From positions 107,859 to 138,555 of the forward strand of contig CAYHAA010000007.1 in NCBI GenBank assembly GCA_964354495.1: DNA of 30,697 nucleotides, in the 5' to 3' direction. Source of the DNA: an uncultured archaeon (lineage in GTDB: Archaea > Asgardarchaeota > Thorarchaeia > Thorarchaeales > Thorarchaeaceae). The position numbers were made by a program, and so were the translations under genes. A model generated the notes under the pieces. The model made no database searches. It saw only the letters and a program-made list of their open reading frames with translations, and had not been told where the DNA came from. Below are positions 2,649-14,676 of the stretch, in pieces (position 1 is the first letter of the stretch; each line of letters starts with the position of its first letter).

Positions 2649-3650
2649 ATGAAACAGCTTATCAGTACTAAGCACGTTGGAACTGCCATGGACAGCAGGA
2701 CAGTCACAGAGATACTTCGCATTGCCTCAACCATCGACAAGGATGGTTTTGGTGCAGTTGCAGAGGACCTTGCAGGCACCGAGGTTCTTGGCAAGATGTT
2801 CCATGGAGCCACATCTCGGGACGCGCAGATCTGCAACCTGACAACTTCAAGGCTTGGGCTGCGCTCTGTCGACCTCAGTTGGGCCAGTGTTGACGCCACA
2901 GAGTCTGCCTTGCTGTTAGATGAGCTGAGCATGGCAAGTAAGGCGGTCGACCTCCTTGTCACAGCATTCTCCAGCCATGAGACCTTTGGAGATGGCAGGA
3001 AGCTTACAATCAAGTTCCCTGAGTCTTCTGCAGTACCGGTCATCAGCCTACATGATGACTTCTACGACTGGCAGTCTGCTCTCTCGCACCTCCATGGATT
3101 TCAAAGAGAGCTGGGTGACCTTAAGGGAAAGCAGGTTGTGATTGCCTGGGGATTCGGGTCCTCGTTCATCAGTCCTGCCATAGCACACGGGCTCTTGGTC
3201 ACAAGCGCACTGCTAGGCTCAAAGGTCCGTGTAGCGTTTCCCCCTGAGTTCTCGCTTCTGAAACGTGTACTCAAAGAGACCAAGGAAGTCACAGAAGAAA
3301 CAGGCTCTACATTTGAGGAGACCACGGACTTCACGGATGCCTTTCAGGATGCAGATGCAGTGTTCTCCCTCAACTGGCTGAGGCTCGATGACTTCAATCA
3401 TCCGGAGCGAAATACGCAGCATGCAGGCAAGTACAAGGACTGGTATGTGACACAGGACACTCTCTCCAGACAGTGCATCTTTTCGACTGAGCCTCCTCTT
3501 CAACCTGATCTGACGTTCAGCCCTGATCTTCTTGAGGACCAGCGAAACATATCCTCATCCTGGTTGGTTCGTCGGGTCCACGTACTTGCAGCCTCGATTG
3601 TCTATGTTCTGCGTGAGAGCGGGAATGATGGTATCTTTTCTATGGTCTAG
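2649..3650 (+). CDS. Aspartate/ornithine carbamoyltransferase-family protein (YgeW/AOTCase-like) with degenerate catalytic motifs
   Basis: Segments VPVISL, LKGKQVVIAWGF, VRVAFPPEF, AFQDADAVF and RVHVLAAS match the transcarbamylase layout. STRT reads TSRD, HPxQ reads YDWQ and HCLP reads TEPP. Confidence 0.75.
   Translation: MKQLISTKHVGTAMDSRTVTEILRIASTIDKDGFGAVAEDLAGTEVLGKMFHGATSRDAQICNLTTSRLGLRSVDLSWASVDATESALLLDELSMASKAVDLLVTAFSSHETFGDGRKLTIKFPESSAVPVISLHDDFYDWQSALSHLHGFQRELGDLKGKQVVIAWGFGSSFISPAIAHGLLVTSALLGSKVRVAFPPEFSLLKRVLKETKEVTEETGSTFEETTDFTDAFQDADAVFSLNWLRLDDFNHPERNTQHAGKYKDWYVTQDTLSRQCIFSTEPPLQPDLTFSPDLLEDQRNISSSWLVRRVHVLAASIVYVLRESGNDGIFSMV
3514..3650 (+). repeat. Copy A of a 137-bp direct repeat (3' end of the carbamoyltransferase-like gene); copy B at 5411-5547
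   Basis: 3514-3620 vs 5411-5517: 8 mismatches in 107 bp, ungapped; the last 30 bp have 10 mismatches. Confidence 0.95.
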
Positions 3651-3840
3651 CCTCTGATTGTGTCCAGTATGTTGCGGCAGTCAATGGATGCGTTGAAAGA
3701 GTCAGAGCTGTTTCTCTTCTGCTACATTCTTCTAGAGTTACTGAACGGACTCCTGAAGCCCCATCCCCCAAAGGTGTGGAGCCCACTATTGGTTTTCGAG
3801 GTACCACAATCCATCTGTCATTAAGTAGTTGTAGAAACGA

Positions 3841-4060
3841 CTGGCTAATACTTTCATCAAGACTCTTCTACATCTTATCTTCTCCATCGACTCTGTCCCG
3901 GATTTTCATCATTGATTGACCAAATAGAGCGGCTCCAATATGAGCAGTGATAGATGCCGCGAAGGATAAACTTCTCAACTGTGGTGTGAAACTCAGGCCA
4001 TGGTCCTGCCCACCAATTGACTGTTCTTAATAGCTGAACCTCTGAATGTGGAGTGCTAGT
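3841..4060 (-). pseudogene. Decayed fourth hinge/C-terminal cassette fragment
   Basis: Minus-strand translation TSTPHSEVQLLRTVNWWAGPWPEFHTTVEK (WWAGPWP at 3995-4015), frameshift near 3961, then AASITAHIGAALFGQSMMKI (aligns to the AxDLLG block), then an in-frame TAG at 3868-3870. Boundaries approximate. Confidence 0.6.
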
Positions 4061-4089
4061 TCAGCAGAATGCTTCGTATTTGCATCCAT

Positions 4090-4440
4090 CTACCCAGAAT
4101 ATTGATTATATCTAATCGCGCGAAGCTCCCGTAGTTTCGGATAAAATACAGATACAATCGGAATCAGTATTGACAAAAATGACCCTAAGAGGAAGACAAA
4201 CTCTGTGTTGATATCAGGAACAATCATTACTAGTGTACCGAATATCAACCATAGACACCCCGTCACTGCAACACCAACGAATAGAGAAATACCAATCGCT
4301 ATGGAATTATCGACAGCAGGTGTTTTGGACTGTCTAAAATACGCTGATGATTTCCATGCAGCAGATAGCGTCATTACTGCAATAACCAGCCACATACCAA
4401 TGAGGAAGAAGATAGCCTCCATATAGTTAATAGTCTGCAT
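4090..4440 (-). CDS. Small ~3-TM membrane protein, candidate immunity/partner protein of cassette 3
   Basis: 116 aa, three hydrophobic segments, basic loop and tail; GGTGA SD upstream; lies directly downstream of the 4570-5619 ORF. Function inferred from position. Confidence 0.7.
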   Translation of the reverse strand: MQTINYMEAIFFLIGMWLVIAVMTLSAAWKSSAYFRQSKTPAVDNSIAIGISLFVGVAVTGCLWLIFGTLVMIVPDINTEFVFLLGSFLSILIPIVSVFYPKLRELRAIRYNQYSG

Positions 4441-4569
4441 AACTCTTCACCGCGCCAACAGGATGTAGAATCGATTGAAAGAATCATTGCGAGAAACGCC
4501 ATCGAGATTCGAAAAAAGCTTCCTACGAATTCTGTTCTGAATTTCTCTCATTTCGTCTTTCCCTTTCTT

Positions 4570-5619
4570 CTAGATGAGTTCAAGTAGTGTATAAGTGAAA
4601 AACACTGCAGCAGTCAGAAACACCCAGCATACAAGAAGCAATTTGATGCAGAGGAATATTAACGACATATCAGTGAAACCATGTATGAGTCGAGCAAAGA
4701 GTCCCGATGTTTCACTTGCAGCTTTTTCTGCCAACGACAATGCAACTCCAGGTTTTATGAAATCTAGGCACGTAATCGTAAGGAGAAGCCCCAATCCTAT
4801 GACTACGATCATCCAAAATCGATTGAAGGCATTGTCTGTGATTTCGCAGATATTGTTTATAGTAACCGCCATATCAATTACAAAGAGAGCACAATACGCT
4901 ATAATAAGACCTGCCGCAACGGGCCATAGCCCCGGGAATTTCTCACAGGCCATGCAAGCGATTGACGCGCCAACGCCTGTGAGAAAGACAAGATTATGGA
5001 GGAATTGTTCTAAGAACCATTGCTGTACAACGTCCTCTGCTAGAGCATCTAGATATCCCTCATTTTCAAGAGGATCATCAGGAGAGTTAGTTTCGAGTGA
5101 TGCATCTTCCACCTGCGAAAATCCTAGAAGGTCTCTTGCTACCTGATATCTAAATGTAAAGCCCTCGGAAGTTGTCTGTTCAATTCGAACATGTAGTACC
5201 GGCCATGGACCAGTCCACCAACTTTCTACCTCATTCATCAAGTCTTCTGGAGGATTTATCAAACCCATTTGCTGGTACTTGAGAGCTAACTCATCATTAG
5301 AATCAGTTGCAGTTCCATCCTGTCCCTCCGGCTCCGGCACTGACGTGTCCTGGCCAGCATAGAGCCCAATAGCGTGGAGGCGCAGGTCGATGAGGTTGTA
5401 GGAGCTGTACCGTTCAGCCCTGATCTTCTTTAGGACCAGCGAAACATATCCTCCTCCTGGTTGATCCGTCGGGTCTACGTACTTGCAGCCACGATTGTCC
5501 ATGTTCTGCGCGAGAGCAGGACCGCTGGAATTGTTTCTGTCGTCCAGTCTTATTGCACTAGGCAAGAAGGAAGAGAAGAGCCCAGCAGCGATATCTTGGA
5601 TTACCGCAGGAAGCCACAT
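4570..5619 (-). CDS. Orphan C-terminal cassette 3 (hinge plus variant hydrophobic tip); first ~66 codons are not homologous to the large protein and partly derive from an antisense gene fragment
   Basis: From ~5420 reads IRAERYSSYNLIDLRLHAIGLYAGQDTSVPEPE, near-identical to the large protein, then WWTGPWPVLH and YQVARDLLG, then a divergent region with ~4 hydrophobic helices. Confidence 0.85.
   Translation of the reverse strand: MWLPAVIQDIAAGLFSSFLPSAIRLDDRNNSSGPALAQNMDNRGCKYVDPTDQPGGGYVSLVLKKIRAERYSSYNLIDLRLHAIGLYAGQDTSVPEPEGQDGTATDSNDELALKYQQMGLINPPEDLMNEVESWWTGPWPVLHVRIEQTTSEGFTFRYQVARDLLGFSQVEDASLETNSPDDPLENEGYLDALAEDVVQQWFLEQFLHNLVFLTGVGASIACMACEKFPGLWPVAAGLIIAYCALFVIDMAVTINNICEITDNAFNRFWMIVVIGLGLLLTITCLDFIKPGVALSLAEKAASETSGLFARLIHGFTDMSLIFLCIKLLLVCWVFLTAAVFFTYTLLELI
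5314..5420 (-). repeat. Hinge repeat shared with 8294-8400 and 6812-6861
   Basis: 91/107 identical to 8294-8400, ungapped; most differences are synonymous. Confidence 0.95.
5411..5547 (+). pseudogene. Displaced 3' fragment of the carbamoyltransferase-like gene (copy B)
   Basis: Translates FSPDLL*DQRNISSSWLIRRVYVLAATIVHVLRESRTAGIVSVVQ vs FSPDLLEDQRNISSSWLVRRVHVLAASIVYVLRESGNDGIFSMV*; GAG changed to TAG. Confidence 0.92.
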
Positions 5620-5689
5620 GCAAGATAGACGAAGTAGATGAGTTCCACAACGAGCTAGTGACTTTGGTCAAACAGCAGTGACCTAAGGC

Positions 5690-6025
5690 TCAAGTGGACT
5701 CTATCCTAAAGGGAAGCGTGAGAGCCGTAAACAGTACAAGCAACAGCCCCGGCAATGACGCGAGAAATGCAGGAACCAAGAACTCCGGCTCAAAAAACCA
5801 TTCCCACAGGTACCATGAGATAAATGGAAGAGTAAGGAAGAAGCCAAAATACGCTGCTCTTCTTTTCTTTGTTTGTACATGCAGGGCGAATCGCCTACCA
5901 AACCCCTCCGGCTCCCGATGACCAAGTTCATTCATTCTTCGTGAAACTGTATGTCCTCTACATGCATACCCACTTCCTGCCAACATAAGAACTGTACCTA
6001 GCAATATAGCCCAAAGCAATGTCAT
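5690..6025 (-). CDS. Small ~3-TM membrane protein, candidate immunity/partner protein of cassette 2
   Basis: 111 aa: N-terminal hydrophobic helix, Arg/Lys-rich loop, two more hydrophobic segments; GGAG SD; starts 42 nt after the cassette 2 stop. Confidence 0.7.
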   Translation of the reverse strand: MTLLWAILLGTVLMLAGSGYACRGHTVSRRMNELGHREPEGFGRRFALHVQTKKRRAAYFGFFLTLPFISWYLWEWFFEPEFLVPAFLASLPGLLLVLFTALTLPFRIEST

Positions 6026-6067
6026 CTAGTCACGCTCCAAATCCCAGCCCTGATTCAATGTTGAAAG

Positions 6068-7009
6068 TTACCACCATTGTACAGTCATTCCATAATAAGT
6101 TACAATGCACATAGCAATCAGAACTAGCATCGTAAAGAAAACGATGACGTTTGCCCTGCCATGATATCCATCGAGACTATTGAGTCTTGCCCAACCACCA
6201 CTGAAGTAACGATAGGCTTTCAGGAAGCCAAGAGGACTCCAGTGTAGAAACAACACGTTCATAATCCCAATTCCTAAGGCGGTTAGGGCGGCAGTGAGAA
6301 AGGTCCAGCTTGCTTCTGTATTCGACATCTGCATTTGCCGCACAGCGAAAACCATAGACCACATCAACCACATAAAGAAGCTAATGGTAATCAAGCAAGA
6401 AGTAACAATAAGCGCGTTTGACAGCACAACAGGAAGCATGGCCAAGATTTCTAAGATAAGCAGCATTGCCCAGAAAACGACAAGCTGGTATTGTACGACA
6501 TCGTTCCAGAATGAGTTGGCTGAGGTTTTCTCAGCCACAAGCGCGATAAAACCATTCGCTTCATCTTCCGACAAGTCCTCGAAGCCGTCCATCTTGAAGT
6601 CAACGTATTCGATTGAAGCCGAACCAAGCAAATCCGCAGCCATGGCAACTTCGACAGACACCTCACTGGAGAGAGTCCTTTCTAGTATCAAATGCAACAC
6701 AGGCCATGGACCAGTCCATTGCGCAGTCAATGAGTCATTTGCTTCAAGTATCATGTCTTCAGATTCCTGTTCACGCTCTTTTGATAATGACTCTAGCATG
6801 CTATCGCTGGTTCCATCTGCTTCCTCAGGCTCCGGCACTGACGTGTCCTGTCCAGCGTAGAAACAGATGGCACGGATGTGCACGTCCAACAGGGGATTTG
6901 ACCCGTACCGCTGGCCGATGATGACCACGTACTTGACCATCTGGGAGGTTTTTTGGTCAGGTACTTCACATAACTCGCATATTCGATTCTTGTGACTATT
7001 GTGGCTCAT
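6068..7009 (-). CDS. Orphan C-terminal cassette 2 (hinge plus variant hydrophobic tip)
   Basis: VKYVVIIGQRY matches the last strands of the repeat domain, then YAGQDTSVPEPEEADG, WTGPWPVLH and AADLLG, then ~4 divergent hydrophobic helices. No signal peptide. Confidence 0.85.
   Translation of the reverse strand: MSHNSHKNRICELCEVPDQKTSQMVKYVVIIGQRYGSNPLLDVHIRAICFYAGQDTSVPEPEEADGTSDSMLESLSKEREQESEDMILEANDSLTAQWTGPWPVLHLILERTLSSEVSVEVAMAADLLGSASIEYVDFKMDGFEDLSEDEANGFIALVAEKTSANSFWNDVVQYQLVVFWAMLLILEILAMLPVVLSNALIVTSCLITISFFMWLMWSMVFAVRQMQMSNTEASWTFLTAALTALGIGIMNVLFLHWSPLGFLKAYRYFSGGWARLNSLDGYHGRANVIVFFTMLVLIAMCIVTYYGMTVQWW
6812..6861 (-). repeat. Hinge repeat, third copy
   Basis: 43/50 identical to 8294-8343. 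Confidence 0.9.
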
Positions 7010-7581
7010 AAACTGGAAAGCCTCTCCCTAGCAAGTTCACCCAGTTTATCCTCCCGAGAAGAGAAGTATTCAAGGAATCCTCGTTCGGTTGCAGCTGAAC
7101 AATTGGACCCCAAATCATTCACTAGTGCAATTGCCTCCTCCAGGCCCCTCTCCGGAACCTCATCATACTCGGCGTTAGAAGCTGCAACGTGGTAAATCCT
7201 CCTTGCATGTTTCATATCTAATCCTAGCCTCTGGTATCGAAACACGTTAATCAACAATACTCCAATCATGAATAGAAACCCTGGGACCATCCTTTCTATC
7301 ACTGTTGGGAAGACCTCTATCAGGAAGGGGTGTTGACTCTCTTCTGTGAAGAGAGGGAAACCAACAGTGACAAGGATAGCCACGATTTCGTATAGGGCTA
7401 AATTGAGATTAGGGGAAGTAGCAATCCGGGTAAATGCTTCGTAAAGAGATTTCTCTCTCTGAAACCAGACAATTATCTCCATAAACAATAGCACAATGAA
7501 CAGTGTTAATGCTCCGAGTAACAAAGATAGACCAATCATGATTATCACACCATGTCTAGTATCCCTGAATCCAGAACCCAT
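7006..7581 (-). CDS. Membrane protein (~3 TM plus soluble C-terminal tail), candidate cognate immunity/partner of the full-length protein
   Basis: Immediately follows the large gene; real start more likely GTG 7548 or ATG 7539. Hydrophobic N-terminal half and charged helical tail. Confidence 0.75.
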   Translation of the reverse strand: MGSGFRDTRHGVIIMIGLSLLLGALTLFIVLLFMEIIVWFQREKSLYEAFTRIATSPNLNLALYEIVAILVTVGFPLFTEESQHPFLIEVFPTVIERMVPGFLFMIGVLLINVFRYQRLGLDMKHARRIYHVAASNAEYDEVPERGLEEAIALVNDLGSNCSAATERGFLEYFSSREDKLGELARERLSSL

Positions 7582-10500
7582 ATACTCTAACTAGCATCCC
7601 AAGTATAATGGCTATAAACATCATCTTCACACAAAAGATCACCCAAGACATGAAGCAAAATCTCCTTGCCAAGAGATTCTTACCTGCCTGCGTGTAGTGA
7701 TTCCACCATTCTTTAAAGATAAACCATCCGTTTATACCTGCAATAATGCCTTCGATGATGAGGGTGCTAAGTGTTAGAACCAAAATCCCAAAAGCAGCAG
7801 ATGCAGACACTCTCCCAGATAATACTCCATCCCAGAGCGCCGCGAGTCCCAAGAACATAGCAAGAGTATATGCTATAACAAGGACAGCTAGTAAAGCTAG
7901 CTGTGGCGGAGTAGGAAGTTTGGTGACTAATGCAAGAAGTATGTCAATTGCACCCATAACAATCGCCGCTCCCCAAAGAATAGCAGCATCAACAGTGAAT
8001 GCTTCTGCAAAGAGGTCCAATACTCCAGTCTGAGCCATCAGAGTGATTTGGCCATCAGTCAAGTGGTCATCTACTGGAGTATCTACAGCAAAATCCTCCA
8101 AAACGGTGTTTCCAAGGAGGTCAACTGCCATCTGATATGCATATGTAGCACCAGATTCAAGTGTACCCGTCGTTCTTGAGTGCAGCACAGGCCACCACCC
8201 CGTCCACCATGAAATAGTGCCGGCGATTGCAATGGCAATCAGCATGTCAACAAAGCTCACGGCCGCAGGACTGGGGCTGTATCCAGAGGATGCTCCATCT
8301 GCCTCCTCCGGCTCCGGCACCGAGGTGTCTTGACCCGCGTAGAGCCCGATGGCGTGGAGGCGCAGGCCGATGAGGTTGTAGGAGCTGTACCTCTCAGCCC
8401 GTATTGCCAGATACTTGATCTGCCTGAAGGGATTCGCCACAGCCCCGAGGTCCCCGGACTGGATGGTACTGCTCAGGTCCTTGATCTTGTACGTGATGTG
8501 CTCATTTTCTACCTTCAGCTCGCCCATTCTCCAGAAGGAACTTGAGATATAGCCCGTAGTGTCTGATGTAGGGCTTCCACCCTCAGGGTAGTAGACTACG
8601 TGGAAATATCCACGATAGGACTCTATCAAGTCATCGCCCCAATGGATCGATAGCACAATATTCATGTTCACATCAAAGAGGGCAACATACATCTTGCCTA
8701 GGCTTCGATATTGCTGAATCAACTCGCTCTGTATGTAGAAGAGGCGAAGATCATGCAGGATGAACGGATTCTCGAATTCATGCACGTAATTCGGTCCATG
8801 CCAACCTGGAGGACTACTAGGTATTCCTGTTGGTGTCATATATTCTGTCCCGGGAGGTACAACAATCTCACCGGTTGTCACCACGCCCCAGTTGAAATCG
8901 GGATCACATTCGAAATTATCCATGTCATGGCACGAATCCAGCAGTGTGACTGCTCGCTGGGACCACTTCAGGTCGGCCACCACATTGATGTCATGTATCC
9001 TCATCTCGACGAGGGCGTAGTGAGAGTACCTCTGACCTGTAAGGACCACGTACTGTATCACACGCGAAGCATTGTCACACTCGCCCAGTCTGACCATAAC
9101 GCCACCGATACTGGAGAATATCGAGCCCTCGTCTCCTGGGTAGGAGCCCCACCAGAGCTTGCCAGTCTTCATGAAGGAAGAATAGATGTACTCCGGGTAC
9201 TGGGTATAACTAGTCCCATTCTGCATATAGTAGGTATAGAAATAGCCCTTCTTAGAACCAACCCACGAATCACCCCAGCCAATCTCCATAACAATCTGTT
9301 TCTTCTCATCAAACAGACCAACGAACGTCTTTCCCATGGTCGAGAGACTCTGAACCAATTCCCCAACCACAGAGAACTCACTGAGCTGACACAGCCTGAA
9401 CGGTCTGTCCAAGACATGGACGAAATTCGGACCATGCCACCCTGTTGGACTGGCTGGAATATCTGTAGGAGTCATATAGCTCTGTCCAGAAGGGACTGTG
9501 AAGTTGCCATCAGAGACCGTGCCATATCCGAAATCCAGGTCTTTATGGAAATTGTCCATATCATTACAATTGTCGTGAAATACTGTATAGTCAGAAGCTG
9601 CATAATTGAGTTGCACATTATCGATATGTGCATCATTCATCATATAGGAAGAAGAACGGCAGCTCTGTATCACTATGTATTTGACAATACGGTCTGTATT
9701 GATATCAGTCCACTTGAATAGCCGTGTTTCATTCATCTCCGGAACATTAGCATAGATCCCCTGGTGGGGGTCGTATCTAATCTGGACAATTCCTGAGCTA
9801 TCGCCATAGATTGTTGGAGAACTCAGGCTTGCCGACGTGGTGCCATCTTCAAAGTAATATCTTGCTTCAAACGCCTCTCGCTGGTCGCTAACATAAATGG
9901 AAGGCCAGAAGTCGACTACTCTGAGATAGAGCACAATCCTCATTCTATCATCATAAAGACTGACTGAAGTAAGACTTACCTGACCTTCGTCCACCTCATG
10001 GTAGATTGAGAGGTTTGTTGATATGGAACCCATATCACCTATCCTGAAGTATGATGGGAGGGTTCTGACAAACGAGGGACCGTGCCATCCAGTACCAGTT
10101 GGAATGGAGTTGACATAGATGTAGTCGCCAGTGGAGTGAATCGACCCAGTGCTCGTTGTTGCTCCAGGGAATGGAGGCCAAGTTGACTCATATTCATAAT
10201 CAGCTTTCGTACAGGGGTCGGTCCACGATCCCCCAGTCCGCTTAGGGTTGCGTCCTACTATCGGCTCTTGCCAGACTTCATCAACCTTCTGTTTCTGTAT
10301 GTATGTTCCTCCTGCATCAATCTGGCTTAGAGCGATTGAGTCAACTAGCGTTACATTATTGCCGTCAAGAGTGGGTCCGCTGGCAGTCACATTGACAACC
10401 ACTTGCAGGAACTCATGCCCATCGCCTGTGTACTTTAGCCAGCCTGAATAAGTTCCACCAGTGAATACTGGCGTTGAGTTTACCCATTGACCTCCTGTGA

Positions 10501-11515
10501 TATATAGCGCGGTTGTGTAGAATTCGCTGAATAGACCAGATGACTGCAAGTCATATTCGAGCCAATCAGGAGGCAGTGACTCACCCCCCCCGGGAACATA
10601 GGATGAATTGATGTAGTAGTTCTTTGTGTACGTAATATGAAGTACGCCGAGTTGCCGAACAGTCTCAACACCATCGATGTCAACATAGAATCTGTAGTAA
10701 TGCTCAATCTCCGCTCGCAAATCAGCAGGCAGCAAATAGAAGTCGGCAGGTGAGAAGTAGGTTTGAACAACTGCTTCTCTATAGACCATTGAATCTTCTG
10801 TATAGGTTGAGTTGTAGGTATCATCAATGGTCTCAATCTCGTTCAGAATAATCTCTTCAAAGTCCATAACATGAACGCTTTTGCCAGATTCAATGAGTTC
10901 TTTGGCTTTTGTGAGCTCTTCTTCCCTATATTGACTTGCAGCATCCTCATCAAATCCGAATGCCAACATGATAGTCGTAACGATCTCGACATTTGTGACC
11001 TCAGCCGGTCTTGCTCCGGGAACCGTATACAATTTCTTGCCCGAGTCTTGGTCACCATGTCGAATGATGTTTCTGCTGGAGCAAGAAGTGAACAGATGAA
11101 TTGTGGCTACAGAGTCGTCAATAATCTGTGCCATGGTCTTCCAAGCAGTGATGCGACTACCTGTGACTATTCCAAGAGGACCACCATGCGAAACATAGAT
11201 TATGATGCCATCTGTGACTGATTGAGCAACATGGGGATCATCAGTTTTGATTACACTAATTCGGTTTGGAAAGAACGGGTCATCATGAATGAACTTGGAT
11301 AAACGGTTGATGAGGTCCTGTGTTGCCCAATCCGAGTCACTGTCTTGAGACAGTTGAATGATAGTCACCCCGGGACCAGCATTCGCGTCATCAGCAGTCC
11401 AAGCAGTCGCAGCGACGAGCTGCATTGAGAGGACTGCAGTCACAAGAAAGGCACACAGTAATAGCACATGTCTTCTATCGAAACGACCTTCGAATCTCAT
11501 GCTCAATCTCTCCAC
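7556..11515 (-). CDS. Large secreted multidomain protein, candidate polymorphic toxin or recognition protein
   Basis: 1319 aa (ATG at 11500 with upstream GGAG is a likely start). Signal peptide RRHVLLLCAFLVTAVLSMQLVAA; YVSHGG...HLFTSCSS; three GWHGP repeats; hinge shared with the downstream cassettes; ~4 C-terminal hydrophobic helices. Confidence 0.9.
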   Translation of the reverse strand: MERLSMRFEGRFDRRHVLLLCAFLVTAVLSMQLVAATAWTADDANAGPGVTIIQLSQDSDSDWATQDLINRLSKFIHDDPFFPNRISVIKTDDPHVAQSVTDGIIIYVSHGGPLGIVTGSRITAWKTMAQIIDDSVATIHLFTSCSSRNIIRHGDQDSGKKLYTVPGARPAEVTNVEIVTTIMLAFGFDEDAASQYREEELTKAKELIESGKSVHVMDFEEIILNEIETIDDTYNSTYTEDSMVYREAVVQTYFSPADFYLLPADLRAEIEHYYRFYVDIDGVETVRQLGVLHITYTKNYYINSSYVPGGGESLPPDWLEYDLQSSGLFSEFYTTALYITGGQWVNSTPVFTGGTYSGWLKYTGDGHEFLQVVVNVTASGPTLDGNNVTLVDSIALSQIDAGGTYIQKQKVDEVWQEPIVGRNPKRTGGSWTDPCTKADYEYESTWPPFPGATTSTGSIHSTGDYIYVNSIPTGTGWHGPSFVRTLPSYFRIGDMGSISTNLSIYHEVDEGQVSLTSVSLYDDRMRIVLYLRVVDFWPSIYVSDQREAFEARYYFEDGTTSASLSSPTIYGDSSGIVQIRYDPHQGIYANVPEMNETRLFKWTDINTDRIVKYIVIQSCRSSSYMMNDAHIDNVQLNYAASDYTVFHDNCNDMDNFHKDLDFGYGTVSDGNFTVPSGQSYMTPTDIPASPTGWHGPNFVHVLDRPFRLCQLSEFSVVGELVQSLSTMGKTFVGLFDEKKQIVMEIGWGDSWVGSKKGYFYTYYMQNGTSYTQYPEYIYSSFMKTGKLWWGSYPGDEGSIFSSIGGVMVRLGECDNASRVIQYVVLTGQRYSHYALVEMRIHDINVVADLKWSQRAVTLLDSCHDMDNFECDPDFNWGVVTTGEIVVPPGTEYMTPTGIPSSPPGWHGPNYVHEFENPFILHDLRLFYIQSELIQQYRSLGKMYVALFDVNMNIVLSIHWGDDLIESYRGYFHVVYYPEGGSPTSDTTGYISSSFWRMGELKVENEHITYKIKDLSSTIQSGDLGAVANPFRQIKYLAIRAERYSSYNLIGLRLHAIGLYAGQDTSVPEPEEADGASSGYSPSPAAVSFVDMLIAIAIAGTISWWTGWWPVLHSRTTGTLESGATYAYQMAVDLLGNTVLEDFAVDTPVDDHLTDGQITLMAQTGVLDLFAEAFTVDAAILWGAAIVMGAIDILLALVTKLPTPPQLALLAVLVIAYTLAMFLGLAALWDGVLSGRVSASAAFGILVLTLSTLIIEGIIAGINGWFIFKEWWNHYTQAGKNLLARRFCFMSWVIFCVKMMFIAIILGMLVRVYGFWIQGY
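8330..10160 (-). repeat. Three tandem ~213-aa intragenic domain repeats
   Basis: GWHGP codons at 10076-10090, 9428-9442 and 8792-8806 (spacing 648 and 636 bp). Shared V(S/G/A)L(Y/F)D...IV and (V/I)(K/Q)Y(I/V/L)..R.S.Y motifs; repeats 2 and 3 begin D.C.DMDNF. Boundaries approximate. Confidence 0.9.
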
Positions 11516-11929
11516 TCAACCACGTAGCGCCCAAGACAGGTACGAGAACCCAATTGGTCTTGGGGCATATGGTATCCCTTACTCATGGCGGCATATAACA
11601 TGCAGTGCAGAGTGGGGCTCGTGCGTAGACCTCAACCAGAAGGACTATTCGCAGATTCTAAGCCACTTGGCACCGAGGGCAGTATTCCCGGATCCGAATC
11701 AGCTCCGAGCTCACGGGTGAAAAATAACAAAAACAGCACTCTTATCTTAACAAATGGCCACGGAATGTAAATGTACCATTCCTTATTCTATTCGCTCGGG
11801 CATCTGGATGATGAAGAGAGAGTGAGCTCGGCATGGACATAGAACCGGGAGCACATAGACATGGACAGTTGAGAGTGGTGCATGTTCTTCATAGAGCTTT
11901 TATCGAACCGCAGCTGTGTGGCTAGTGAG

Positions 11930-13033
11930 ATGTGGAGATATATCAGGCCTGACGCTTTCGGAGTGTGGAAAGACCCTGAGACCCTACGCCGGTTGCCACG
12001 CTATCGGTCGATCATAGACCAAGAACATCTCGCCAAGTATCTCCTCGCAAGAGGCACTGACTATCATGGAGACCTCTCCCAGACAACAGACAGTCTCTGG
12101 AGCGACCATCGAGAGATGTCCATGAGGTTTCACGAATATGTGCGCGCACTAGACCGCGGCGATGCTGAACCAGCCGGTGGAAATGTCGCACGCCCGACGT
12201 TCCTCGACTTGAAGGTGGAGCTGGCTCATCGCATACTTGAGAACTGTCACTTCTGTGAACGGAAGTGCGGTGCTGACAGGACCCGGGGAAAAAAGGGATG
12301 GTGCAAGCTCGGCCCTGACTCGCGAGTCTCATCCGCATTTCTGCATACAGGAGAGGAGGCTCCCCTTGTTCCCTCTGGAACGATTTTCTTCTCGTCGTGC
12401 TGCTTCGGCTGTGTATTCTGCCAGAACCAGGACATCTCAACAAATCCGAATGCCGGTCACACAGTGAATCCTGAGGGACTTGCCTCCATTGCCGAGTCCC
12501 TGTATCGCGAGGGTGCGTTGAACATCAACTATGTCGGGGGTGACCCAATCCCTAACACACACACGATTCTTGCCTCCATGACACACCAGCAGTCGAACGT
12601 GACGCAGCTCTGGAACTCCAATCTCTATTGCTCCGAGGATACCATGGCACTGCTGGCCGATGTCATCGATGTCTGGCTGCCTGACTTCAAATATGGAAAT
12701 GACGCATGTGCTGAGCGCCTGTCGGGGGTGAAGAACTACTTTGAGGTGGTCTCACGGAATCATCTGCTTGCTTATGAGGCAGGGGAGGTCATCATCCGCC
12801 ATCTGGTCCTACCCAGCCATGTGGAGTGCTGCACGATTCCCATCCTCGAGTGGATTGCAGGGCACATGCCCAATTGCATGGTGAACATCATGGACCAGTA
12901 TCGCCCGGAGCACAGGGTTCTCAAGGAACGCGAAGGGTTCTCCGACATCGCCCGGGGTTTGCATCGCGACGAGATCGACACTGCCCGTGCGAAGGCCGAC
13001 GAGCTCGGTATCTGCTGGCGCCCGGTCAGTTAA
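11930..13033 (+). CDS. PflX-family radical SAM protein
   Basis: CHFCERKC N-terminal cluster, radical SAM CFGCVFC, VGGDP, WNSN, PDFKYGN, IIRHLVLP and MDQYRP. ATG 11930 preferred over 11882. Confidence 0.9.
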   Translation: MWRYIRPDAFGVWKDPETLRRLPRYRSIIDQEHLAKYLLARGTDYHGDLSQTTDSLWSDHREMSMRFHEYVRALDRGDAEPAGGNVARPTFLDLKVELAHRILENCHFCERKCGADRTRGKKGWCKLGPDSRVSSAFLHTGEEAPLVPSGTIFFSSCCFGCVFCQNQDISTNPNAGHTVNPEGLASIAESLYREGALNINYVGGDPIPNTHTILASMTHQQSNVTQLWNSNLYCSEDTMALLADVIDVWLPDFKYGNDACAERLSGVKNYFEVVSRNHLLAYEAGEVIIRHLVLPSHVECCTIPILEWIAGHMPNCMVNIMDQYRPEHRVLKEREGFSDIARGLHRDEIDTARAKADELGICWRPVS

Positions 13034-13091: not shown

Positions 13092-13331
13092 ATGTGCCTA
13101 GCTGTTCCTGCCCTAGTCCTGTCGATTGATGGGGACTTTGCAATGGTGGACTTCGGGGGCGCTAGCAAGAAGGTCTGCGTCACCCTGCTCCCGGGCCTGA
13201 AGGTCGGAGAGTACGTCATTGTCCACACAGGGTATGCCATCGAGAAGATGAAGGCTGATGAGGCACAGAAGACCCTCGCCCTCTTCGAAGAGATGGCACA
13301 GATGGAAGATGAGATGAAGAGCCTAGAGTAA
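13092..13331 (+). CDS. hypC: HypC/HybG/HupF hydrogenase maturation chaperone
   Basis: MCLAVP N-terminus and VGEYVIVHTGYAI; true start is ATG 13092 so that Cys2 is exposed. Confidence 0.95.
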   Translation: MCLAVPALVLSIDGDFAMVDFGGASKKVCVTLLPGLKVGEYVIVHTGYAIEKMKADEAQKTLALFEEMAQMEDEMKSLE

Positions 13332-13418: not shown

Positions 13419-13859
13419 TCAAATTGCAGTCCGGTTTTCTGAAAGCACATCATCCTCCAGCACTTCACGCCACACTCGACGATACTTCCAAGTGACTTCT
13501 ACCAACAGGACACACATGACAACTGTCGTTCCGATTGCAGTGAACTGCGATGCATAACCAAACATGATTACAAAGAGTGGTGCAACAAGAAGAGCACCCC
13601 AATAGTAACTGACAACGAGCGCTGGAGTAAGGGAAATCACGCAGAACAGAGTGTCAAGAGTCCTCCGATGAGTTCTATAAGTCTTCAGAATGTCAGCTGA
13701 TGAGCCCATCAATCTCAATGACAAGGCCTGAATCAGTATAGAAATGGATACTATGAGGATACCAGTAAAGAATAGAACAACAGCACACACAATCATCACG
13801 ACAAAGACCACGAGTGGATCTAGCATCCAGAAAACCCCCAATTCCATGCTGAGCTGCAA
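13419..13859 (-). CDS. Small 3-4 TM membrane protein of unknown function inside an insert flanked by hypC 3' repeats
   Basis: 146 aa, hydrophobic segments separated by a basic loop (KTYRTHRR); lower GC than hypC; start may be ATG 13847 or 13826. Confidence 0.65.
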   Translation of the reverse strand: MQLSMELGVFWMLDPLVVFVVMIVCAVVLFFTGILIVSISILIQALSLRLMGSSADILKTYRTHRRTLDTLFCVISLTPALVVSYYWGALLVAPLFVIMFGYASQFTAIGTTVVMCVLLVEVTWKYRRVWREVLEDDVLSENRTAI

Positions 13860-13956
13860 GTGACAGCAACGGTAGACCAGTCAAATTAACACAGATCCTA
13901 CTGCAATTTAACTTATCGTCAAGAGGCTGACAGGCCGCTGAGCAGAGTCTGTTTCT

Positions 13957-14042
13957 AGAAGATGAAGGCTGATGAGGAGAAGATTCTTGTCCTCTCCGAA
14001 GAAACAATTCAGATGGAAGCTGAGATGGATAGCAAGCAGTAA
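13957..14042 (+). pseudogene. Displaced, degenerate 3' fragment of hypC
   Basis: KMKADE-EKILVLSEETIQMEAEMDSKQ* vs hypC KMKADEAQKTLALFEEMAQMEDEMKSLE*. First 21 bp identical to 13243-13263; 68/86 overall with one 3-bp gap; the stop codon aligns. Confidence 0.9.
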
Positions 14043-14172: not shown

Positions 14173-14676
14173 TTGACTCAGGAGCATTTGGGTGACTTGA
14201 GTTCAATAGGTCTGTTTGCGGCAGTTGTTCTCATTTGTGCTGTATCTGTGTTTCTTATTCGGGCAGTATACGAGGATAGATTGCTTCCGTGGAGGGACAG
14301 ACATGGGAATGCCTCCATACTGCTGGACTTCCTCCTGATGTCTATCATCCTTAACATGTTTATTATCACCGTACTCGATACTGCCGGCCAAGAGCTATGG
14401 AGCAGCGACCATCTATCCGCAATGATAGTGTCTGTCGGGCTGCCATTACTCTCGGCTTGGGACTCTTGGAGAACACGATGGACTAAACAAGACCAAAGCA
14501 GACAAAACAAGATACACAACATATGGGTTCGCGTGCGGCCTCTATTGATGGGGGTCCTTCTCTGCTTGATGATATGGCGCTTGGGAAGTTGGGATTTCGG
14601 GAACGCCGCAATCTATGCACTACTTGTCCTCCTGCTCTTCATTCAAATCCACAATGAGAAAGGCAGACAGACCTGA
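14173..14676 (+). CDS. Hypothetical multi-pass membrane protein (167 aa)
   Basis: About five hydrophobic segments with one basic loop; TTG start uncertain. Confidence 0.6.
   Translation: MTQEHLGDLSSIGLFAAVVLICAVSVFLIRAVYEDRLLPWRDRHGNASILLDFLLMSIILNMFIITVLDTAGQELWSSDHLSAMIVSVGLPLLSAWDSWRTRWTKQDQSRQNKIHNIWVRVRPLLMGVLLCLMIWRLGSWDFGNAAIYALLVLLLFIQIHNEKGRQT

Follow-up and report, generated by a model that had tools for sequence, protein, structure and literature searches.

A trapped fragment of a carbamoyltransferase-like gene suggests stacking of two diverged alleles in a surface-protein cassette array of an Asgard archaeon

Introduction

The growth of arrays of orphan tips and immunity genes is commonly explained by homologous anchoring on one side and an illegitimate join on the other, and the joints are rarely identifiable. 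Homology-facilitated illegitimate recombination (HFIR) is known in Acinetobacter, Streptococcus pneumoniae and Pseudomonas stutzeri (de Vries and Wackernagel 2002; Prudhomme et al. 2002; Meier and Wackernagel 2003; all as cited in PMC5361080) and has been proposed for the effector-immunity arrays of Vibrio cholerae's type VI secretion system (T6SS) and for Rhs loci (PMC5361080). Here we analyse a 30.7-kb stretch of contig CAYHAA010000007.1 (the window) from a metagenome-assembled genome (MAG) of Candidatus Thorarchaeota (Asgard; 3.3 Mb in 51 contigs, 97.7% complete). In the window the 3' end of an OTC-like (carbamoyltransferase-like) gene occurs a second time, embedded in an array of cassettes belonging to a large surface protein. 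The process is of a known kind, though its setting is new, and we read the case as an unusually clean fossil of cassettes having been gained additively through microhomology joining.

On our reading the locus would share with HFIR one homologous anchor, one microhomology join of a few bases and the addition of non-homologous DNA beside a conserved gene. It differs in that it is read from a fossil junction in an uncultured archaeon and not from an experiment, and in that the join lies inside a homologous region, giving a duplication of 140 bp and not a deletion. Rhs/CdiA systems and the T6SS arrays of V. cholerae resemble it in having a constant body, a swappable C-terminal tip and a small cognate gene behind each tip, in keeping older tips downstream with a stub of the constant region, and in growing by horizontal transfer and illegitimate joining (Jackson et al. 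2009; Poole et al. 2011; Kirchberger et al. 2017, PMC5361080). In contrast to these systems, the Asgard body is archaeal and carries no Rhs/YD, filamentous-haemagglutinin or T6SS parts, its tips are diverged versions of one membrane-helix module instead of unrelated toxin folds, and the housekeeping-gene fragment embedded in the array pins one breakpoint exactly.

In organisation the closest archaeal analogue is VARTIG of the Thermococcales (Makarova et al. 2021, PMC8416519). There, too, a large archaeal surface protein has a C-terminal part made hypervariable by intergenome recombination, small variable genes lie behind it, and the locus is organised in a way similar to polymorphic toxin systems. 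The proteins differ, with Ig domains in VARTIG, while the Asgard protein combines a caspase-fold domain with three novel repeats and a membrane tip, and the abstract of that account (PMC8416519) describes neither orphan arrays with hinge stubs nor embedded fragments of flanking genes.

Results

A displaced gene end with a microhomology joint

A direct repeat at 3514-3653 and 5411-5550 was found by the repeat search with 86% identity and by a search against the own genome with an E value of 2.7e-42. In the coding part of the two copies, A and B, 119 of 137 positions are identical (86.9%). Copy B carries an in-frame TAG at 5431-5433, derived from GAG, and its former stop codon TAG has become CAG (5545-5547). 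The layout proposed in a sequence-only reading of the window, an intact gene followed by a 1.76-kb insert and by the displaced, nonsense-bearing 3' end of the same gene, is borne out by the repeat, the open reading frames (ORFs) and these two codons, and the V/I, H/Y, S/T and Y/H differences listed there between the copies are present as stated.

The insert, cassette 3, ends in a relic of the hinge, a 107-nt constant segment that the repeat search found three times, at 5314-5420 (hinge 3), 6812-6918 (hinge 2) and 8294-8400 (hinge 1, within the full-length main gene of the large surface protein). Cassette 3 matches the main-gene hinge perfectly over 24 nt up to GTACC and continues as OTC tail from CGTTCAGCCC on; in a three-way register alignment the switch from hinge 3 to copy B falls inside CGTTCAGCCC. 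In this register the junction of cassette 3 reads GTACC-GT-TCAGCCC-TGATC, the hinge of the full gene GTACC-TC-TCAGCCC-GTATT and OTC copy A TGAC-GT-TCAGCCC-TGATC. The heptamer TCAGCCC had been placed at 8394-8400 in hinge 1 and at 3517-3523 in the OTC-like gene; the alignment recovers it at both positions, and it is common to both parents. Around the perfect 7-mer there is a patch of about 10/15 nt similarity, because the antisense strand of the OTC tail encodes IRAER, as the hinge does. Of the proposed microhomology of 7 bp the sequence thus stands, while its length is provisional, since hinge 1 serves as a proxy for the lost continuation of hinge 3 and a hinge variant from another sample (X6), CAGCCCTGACC before 8406, would lengthen the perfect match with the OTC tail to at least 10 nt.

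Assembly of two co-occurring strains into one chimera might produce such a joint artificially, and for this speak the nature of the genome, a MAG of 51 contigs, and a second OTC variant in the source sample with 9 differing letters at 3326-3427. The sequence-only reading had named the mapping of long reads across 5400-5430 as one check. Four runs of one sample contain 81-92% of the words of 3300-5800, and Logan contigs of two of them, assembled separately, bridge both borders at an even depth of ~5-6x. Those of run X1 cover 3428-4670 without mismatch and 5356-5963 with 1 mismatch, and those of run X2 cover 3454-3868 and 5329-6086 without mismatch. These runs are probably the MAG's own source, so that they represent an independent assembly of the same sample. 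Since hinge and OTC tail share only ~10 nt at the joint, far under any assembler k-mer, a k-mer assembler could not have made it. We therefore regard a chimera as very improbable.

Copy B as the probable end of a once-functional allele

For the allele comparison, OTC-like relatives with 86-91% identity at the protein level were used, and DNA was taken from two of them, L047 and L048. The residues I307, T316, H319, R325, V330 and V332 of copy B are each found in functional relatives, and S316, G325, F330 and M332 occur in copy A alone. The tails of A, B, L047 and L048 form a star with identities of 83-89%. The 18 A/B differences include 6 that are A-only, 9 that are B-only and 2 polymorphisms common with the relatives. 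Compared with functional orthologues, copy B has a ratio of nonsynonymous to synonymous differences per site (pN/pS) of 0.21-0.35, the same range as for gene-to-gene pairs. This range and the residues shared with relatives suggest that B diverged mostly inside a working gene and gained the two disabling changes and a few more later. In agreement with the figure for A and B (86.9%), hinge 3 and hinge 1 are identical in 83 of 97 positions (85.6%); both duplicated ends are equally diverged, and two parental alleles ~13% apart would account for both figures. Copy B accordingly looks like the 3' end of a once-functional allele. The A-B distance resembles that between sister lineages, as based on 137 nt and two reference lineages. 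The proposal that copy B derives from an allele of a related strain is in line with the shared residues, the pN/pS values and this lineage-level distance.

The same junction geometry would result from a tandem duplication in situ, by unequal illegitimate crossing-over at TCAGCCC between sister copies of one genome, which would double the unit of OTC tail, cassettes and hinge, with later replacement of the cassettes and decay of copy B. The excess of B-only over A-only changes (9 vs 6) is as in a decaying copy, and two copies of the nearby hypC tail share lineage-specific Ala-Asp codons, meaning that duplication within the lineage does happen in the neighbourhood. However, the two units share nothing between the repeats: their tips are 24-37% identical, their partners are unrelated and they measure 1.76 kb vs 2.9 kb, so that a complete later replacement of the cassettes would be required. 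Moreover, the B differences look selected (pN/pS 0.21-0.35), B has states of relatives that are absent from A, and the A-B distance equals the between-lineage distance. We consider a duplication in situ unlikely.

Selection keeping an antisense frame open through copy B was considered and rejected, as this frame runs in register with the codons and there are no more than three sense codons whose antisense is a stop. There is one antisense stop in copy A (TCA) and none in copy B and both relatives.

Probable stacking of two alleles

We infer the two-allele origin and the recombination pathway from the sequence, and hold it probable that a single microhomology join and a homologous exchange together placed two diverged alleles of the locus one behind the other. 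Allele P would have consisted of OTC-A, an old tip relic, partner 3, tip 3, hinge 3 and the main gene, and allele Q of OTC-B, partner 2, tip 2, the hinge 2 relic, partner 1, tip 1, hinge 1 and the main gene. A single illegitimate join within a match of 7-10 nt (TCAGCCC, possibly TCAGCCCTGA) would have linked hinge-coding DNA of P to the OTC tail of Q. With incoming DNA being linear, a second, homologous crossover in flanking conserved DNA would complete the event, and the pathway would be that of HFIR. As outcome the cassette sets would be stacked and not swapped: three sets of tip plus partner are kept and the OTC-like gene stays whole, while the redundant OTC tail has decayed.

The structure is symmetric, with OTC-A, cassette 3 and hinge 3 on one side and OTC-B, cassettes 2 and 1 and hinge 1 on the other. 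Since, in addition, the parental haplotypes were not found, either allele could be the resident one. The homologous crossover may have occurred to the left, in the OTC-like gene, which would make cassette 3 the newcomer. Alternatively it may have occurred to the right, in the main gene or on the side of the radical-SAM gene, with the OTC-B tail, cassettes 2 and 1 and the main body as newcomers; this would displace the resident tip 3 in a classical C-terminal displacement. From the earlier proposal that cassette 3 was inserted into a resident locus, the joining of two diverged alleles is consequently retained, but the direction is not, as both readings are equal. The proposed addition of a tip and its partner without replacement agrees with a microhomology join on one side and homologous DNA on the other.

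Several points weigh against stacking. The homologous anchor could sit on either side, and no crossover point was located in the OTC-like gene, the hinge or the body. The microhomology was read from hinge 1, the continuation of hinge 3 itself being lost, and the two-allele origin draws on divergence over only 137 and 97 nt. Neither parental haplotype was found at strain level, and for Asgard archaea the present data document neither uptake of DNA nor fusion of cells. Finally, a second 3'-end duplication 8 kb away opens with the same 19-nt word (16/19), which a purely random illegitimate join does not predict.

A Campbell-type integration would yield the exact structure as well. Here a deletion between the TCAGCCC repeats of the OTC tail and hinge 3, in a donor or sister genome copy, would release a cassette circle of 1.9 kb, which integrates into another allele through one homologous crossover in the 137-bp OTC tail; the duplication would be the circle's OTC segment and the hinge/OTC junction its closing joint. 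Runs of perfect identity of 20 and 22 nt offer crossover sites for this. Yet two rare steps and the transfer of a small circle are needed, a crossover at 87% identity over 137 bp would be inefficient, and neither the circle nor the deletion allele was seen in the Logan contigs matched to the window. Integration of a circle is thus improbable in our view.

A second gene-end duplication and a shared 19-nt word

The 3' end of hypC (Pfam PF01455) at 13240-13331 is repeated at 13954-14042 with 78% identity by BLAST and a deletion of 3 nt. The 622 bp between the copies hold a convergent gene for a 146-amino-acid membrane protein (13419-13859), whose product is 42% identical (E 1e-33) to that of a gene in the OTC-adjacent array of genome G002 (L043:6051-6488); this match indicates that the hypC insert, too, carries part of the cassette system. 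Copy B of hypC is ~30% diverged after its first 24 nt and its end resembles the hypC of other lineages (AEMDxKx), while both copies have the lineage-specific Ala-Asp codons. A single replacement of 8.5 kb, with one duplication at each of its ends, was rejected in view of the decay of copy B, ~30% for hypC vs 13% for OTC; this unequal decay implies that the events differ in age, the one at hypC being the older.

Both duplications open with a 19-nt word, located at 3517-3535 and 13240-13258 as well as at 5414-5432 and 13954-13972. Comparison of TCAGCCCTGATCTTCTTGA with the reverse complement TCAGCCTTCATCTTCTCGA gives 16/19 matches, a level reached by 2 of 3,000 random 46-nt genome pairs (~7e-4). 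A genome-wide self-BLAST for local 3'-end duplications returned 87 pairs of repeats, of which 16 had their edges inspected; among these 16 the word is present only in the OTC and hypC pairs. The other inspected pairs comprise internal protein repeats, other cassette arrays, a 3'-end repeat on contig C18 (9850-9961 and 13611-13722, 90%) and a duplicate of a tRNA 3' end.

The sharing of the word by both duplications could reflect site-directed capture, in which an unlinked recombinase or nuclease acts on the word (TCAGCCNTNATCTTCTNGA) in the 3' ends of the OTC-like and hypC genes and the cassette is integrated, or copied in at break repair, with the gene tails as att-like arms or repair template. 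Integrative elements that bring a replacement 3' end for their target are familiar from phage 21 and e14 in E. coli icd and from tRNA-gene integrases. Such elements likewise leave an intact gene with a new tail, the insert and the displaced old tail, with a block of identity at the 5' edges; unlike them, the present insert has no integrase, phage genes or recognisable element ends, and at its far end it has a truncated coding hinge with homology to the main gene of the resident locus.

In line with site-directed capture, the two duplications carry the word in opposite orientation (16/19), both inserts hold parts of the same cassette system, and in each case copies A and B have their longest run of perfect identity at the 5' edge (20 nt for the OTC-like gene, 21 nt for hypC), with 1 mismatch in the 24 nt of the hypC block against roughly 30% divergence beyond it. 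No further occurrence of the degenerate word exists in the 3.3-Mb genome, although this test is circular, since the word was derived from these sites. Conversely, the word was noticed after the fact, it is absent from all fetched loci of relatives, and 13 other local repeat pairs with inspected edges lack it. The end of the word that borders the junction is not the same in the two cases but the opposite one, so that no single geometry of cleavage or strand exchange fits both. The 20-nt identical block at the 5' edge of both OTC copies is a stretch also conserved in L047 and L048, and the first 43 nt of high A/B identity are equally conserved against these two. The ORFs of 3654-5410 are those of a tip and a transmembrane (TM) partner only, with no recombinase in the insert, and by Pfam no integrase, transposase or nuclease was found among the ORFs tested between 449 and 22961 of the window. 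We judge site-directed capture to be unlikely; if true, it would amount to an integron-like or homing-like capture of cassettes behind Asgard housekeeping genes, without a linked integrase.

Two further observations in the genome stand apart from the locus. Further clusters of local direct repeats with 75-94% identity (C10:102385-109764, C30:6-9879 and C32:9248-13290) may be cassette arrays of other families. On contig C27 a tRNA-3'-end-like sequence is present twice (7083-7136 and 14290-14343), 7.2 kb apart and with 83% identity, and looks like the usual footprint of an element integrated at a tRNA gene.

Related loci and natural variation

The OTC-like gene is kept across the genus, with orthologues at 42-89% amino acid identity. 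In seven species of the genus it abuts or overlaps the radical-SAM gene (11882-13033 in the window; loci listed with this comparison are L009, L010, L011, L013, L017, L018, L019 and L048), and in G017 and L051 the gap between the two is ~270 nt. As the two conserved genes abut in relatives, the whole island of 8.2 kb (3651-11881) is an insertion. Homology among all lineages stops ~15 nt past the OTC stop codon (14-18 nt in comparison with L047 and L048). In L048 (OTC 88% identical) a plus-strand gene for a CBM96 protein of 1,061 amino acids lies between the OTC-like and radical-SAM genes. In L047 (OTC 89%) a convergent gene for 148 amino acids overlaps the OTC stop by 17 nt and is followed by a homologue of the large protein without orphans, which is the layout needed of a parent. 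In G002 small minus-strand genes, arranged as an array, and a tip lie behind the OTC-like gene. The locus is therefore polymorphic in relatives, and not fixed in a single arrangement without cassette polymorphism, the finding that the sequence-only reading had set against itself. A scan of metagenome contigs with the OTC-like protein gave only the two close contigs already known and one at 68%.

Samples of two other studies point to exchange of tips. One X6 contig is 99% identical to 6811-7137, while its first 211 nt are unlike the window, meaning that a different tip is joined exactly at the border of hinge 2. In X6 at 6811 and in X5 at 5332, near-identical or related hinge DNA is joined to different tip sequence, and the loose ends of both contigs contain AGGAATTCCGGGAGCAA. 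This shows that natural populations exchange tips at the hinge border. In X6 the cassette parts are 98-99% identical to the window and the OTC-like gene and main body 87%, which may reflect a recent exchange of cassettes or two strains and was not used beyond the single contig at 6811. The comparison with X5 and X6 extends to those parts of the window that they cover.

The surface protein, its tips and partners

The genes of the array lie on the minus strand, eight kb in all, and converge on the plus-strand OTC-like gene (Table 1). The G+C content changes from 0.53 in the flanks to 0.42-0.52 within the cassette region. The 349-amino-acid ORF (4570-5619) and the 313-amino-acid ORF repeat the last ~300 residues of the large protein with 35-37% identity. 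The former is orphan 3, an open frame that starts with ~70 codons read from the antisense strand of the dead OTC tail and from the spacer; orphans of this family are often called likewise, as ORFs of 270-400 amino acids with their own start codons. The decayed tip remnant has neither a membrane part nor a partner gene, and partner gene 3 matched no Pfam family.

Table 1 Features of the OTC-like gene and the adjoining cassette array (window coordinates)
Feature	Position	Strand	Description
OTC-like gene (carbamoyltransferase-like)	2649..3650	+	Intact ORF of 333 amino acids; Pfam PF00185 (OTCace)
Copy A	3514..3653	+	3' end of the working OTC-like gene, comprising its final 45 codons, the stop codon and a few further nt
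Inter-copy stretch (cassette 3 and older relic)	3654..5410	all genes -	1,757 bp
Decayed tip remnant	3841..4060	-	WWAGPWP at 3995-4015 with stops around; three-frame translation
Partner gene 3	4090..4440	-	116 amino acids, 3-4 predicted membrane helices
Tip 3	4570..5313	-	Variable C-terminal module: short beta-meander with WWTGPWPVLH...DLLG motif, then four long helices
Hinge 3	5314..5420	-	Constant-region relic (IRAERYSSYNLIDLRLHAIGLYAGQDTSVPEPE); 83/97 identical to hinge 1
Junction zone	5411..5425		Hinge homology stops and OTC homology starts; TCAGCCC at 5414-5420
Copy B	5411..5550	+	Apparent dead, displaced 3' end of a second OTC allele
Partner gene 2	5690..6025	-	111 amino acids, 2 membrane helices
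Orphan cassette 2	6068..7009	-	ORF of 313 amino acids; hinge relic 6812-6918 and tip 2
Partner gene 1	7006..7581	-	191 amino acids, 3 membrane helices
Large surface protein	7556..11515	-	1,319 amino acids; includes hinge 1 (8294-8400) and tip 1

Homologues of the large protein come from Thorarchaeota and Promethearchaeia records only. A search among 1.8 billion proteins yielded 187 representatives at E <= 0.001, many of which are orphans of 270-400 amino acids consisting of hinge plus tip; 30 homologues are near full length and all are annotated as 'hypothetical'. The protein is ordered as signal anchor (residues 17-35), N-terminal domain, three repeat domains, hinge, acidic linker and tip, and among homologues the body is 45-62% identical, while the tips fall to 18-47%. 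The N-terminal domain (residues ~45-215; 10480-11400) was modelled at moderate confidence, with a predicted local distance difference test score (pLDDT) of only 59. Its best match in the PDB is the CHAT protease of 8tl0 (E 1e-4), and further matches are legumain, C11, the MARTX cysteine protease domain and caspases; neither His110 nor Cys145 varies among 12 homologues. This extracellular domain thus models as a caspase-fold (clan CD-like) protease.

The tip was modelled (pLDDT 71.5) as a four-stranded meander with the invariant motif W..WP.L...D, followed by four helices of 30-45 residues, and when this model was compared with the PDB by Foldseek, nothing matched at E <= 0.001. The tips can all be aligned over their whole length as a single family, in which the W-W-P-L-D positions do not vary and the W-x-G-x-W-P motif is likewise invariant. 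Tips and partners travel together across species: the pair of tip 1 and partner 1 recurs in G002 (tip 69-74%, partner 71%), as does that of tip 2 and partner 2 (46% and 32%), and a relative of tip 3 in another array (P0189, 47% identical) is followed by a TM gene with weak similarity (E 7e-5). Orphans bearing a hinge are the rule in this family, as seen in the window and in the arrays L044, L045, L052 and L053. In L052 and L053, whose genomic surroundings are unrelated, the order is main gene, partner, orphan, partner, orphan, partner.

In two of these arrays inverted hinge copies flank the body of the main gene, namely 7275-7493 and 9375-9649 vs 12974-13263 in L053, and 1533-1695 and 4834-5194 vs 12183-12543 in L044. 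They are 86-95% identical and each is attached to a different tip. Recombination between such inverted hinges would flip the body onto the other tip, and an inversion switch is therefore possible.

Discussion

From the homologies described, the locus can be classed as an Asgard-restricted polymorphic surface-protein array, and it looks like a conflict or recognition system. Its cassettes most likely provide a membrane-active or membrane-embedded specificity module and the cognate membrane partner, acting in cell-cell conflict or recognition.

The housekeeping-gene fragment trapped in this array fixes one breakpoint to ~10 nt and, if the stacking of two diverged alleles is read correctly from it, captures a step of array growth at its joint. 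Exchange between lineages and additive gain of cassettes would then operate also in Asgard archaea, where genetics do not exist. The footprint offers targets for polymerase chain reaction and long reads, by which the turnover of cassettes may be tracked in natural populations of Thorarchaeota.

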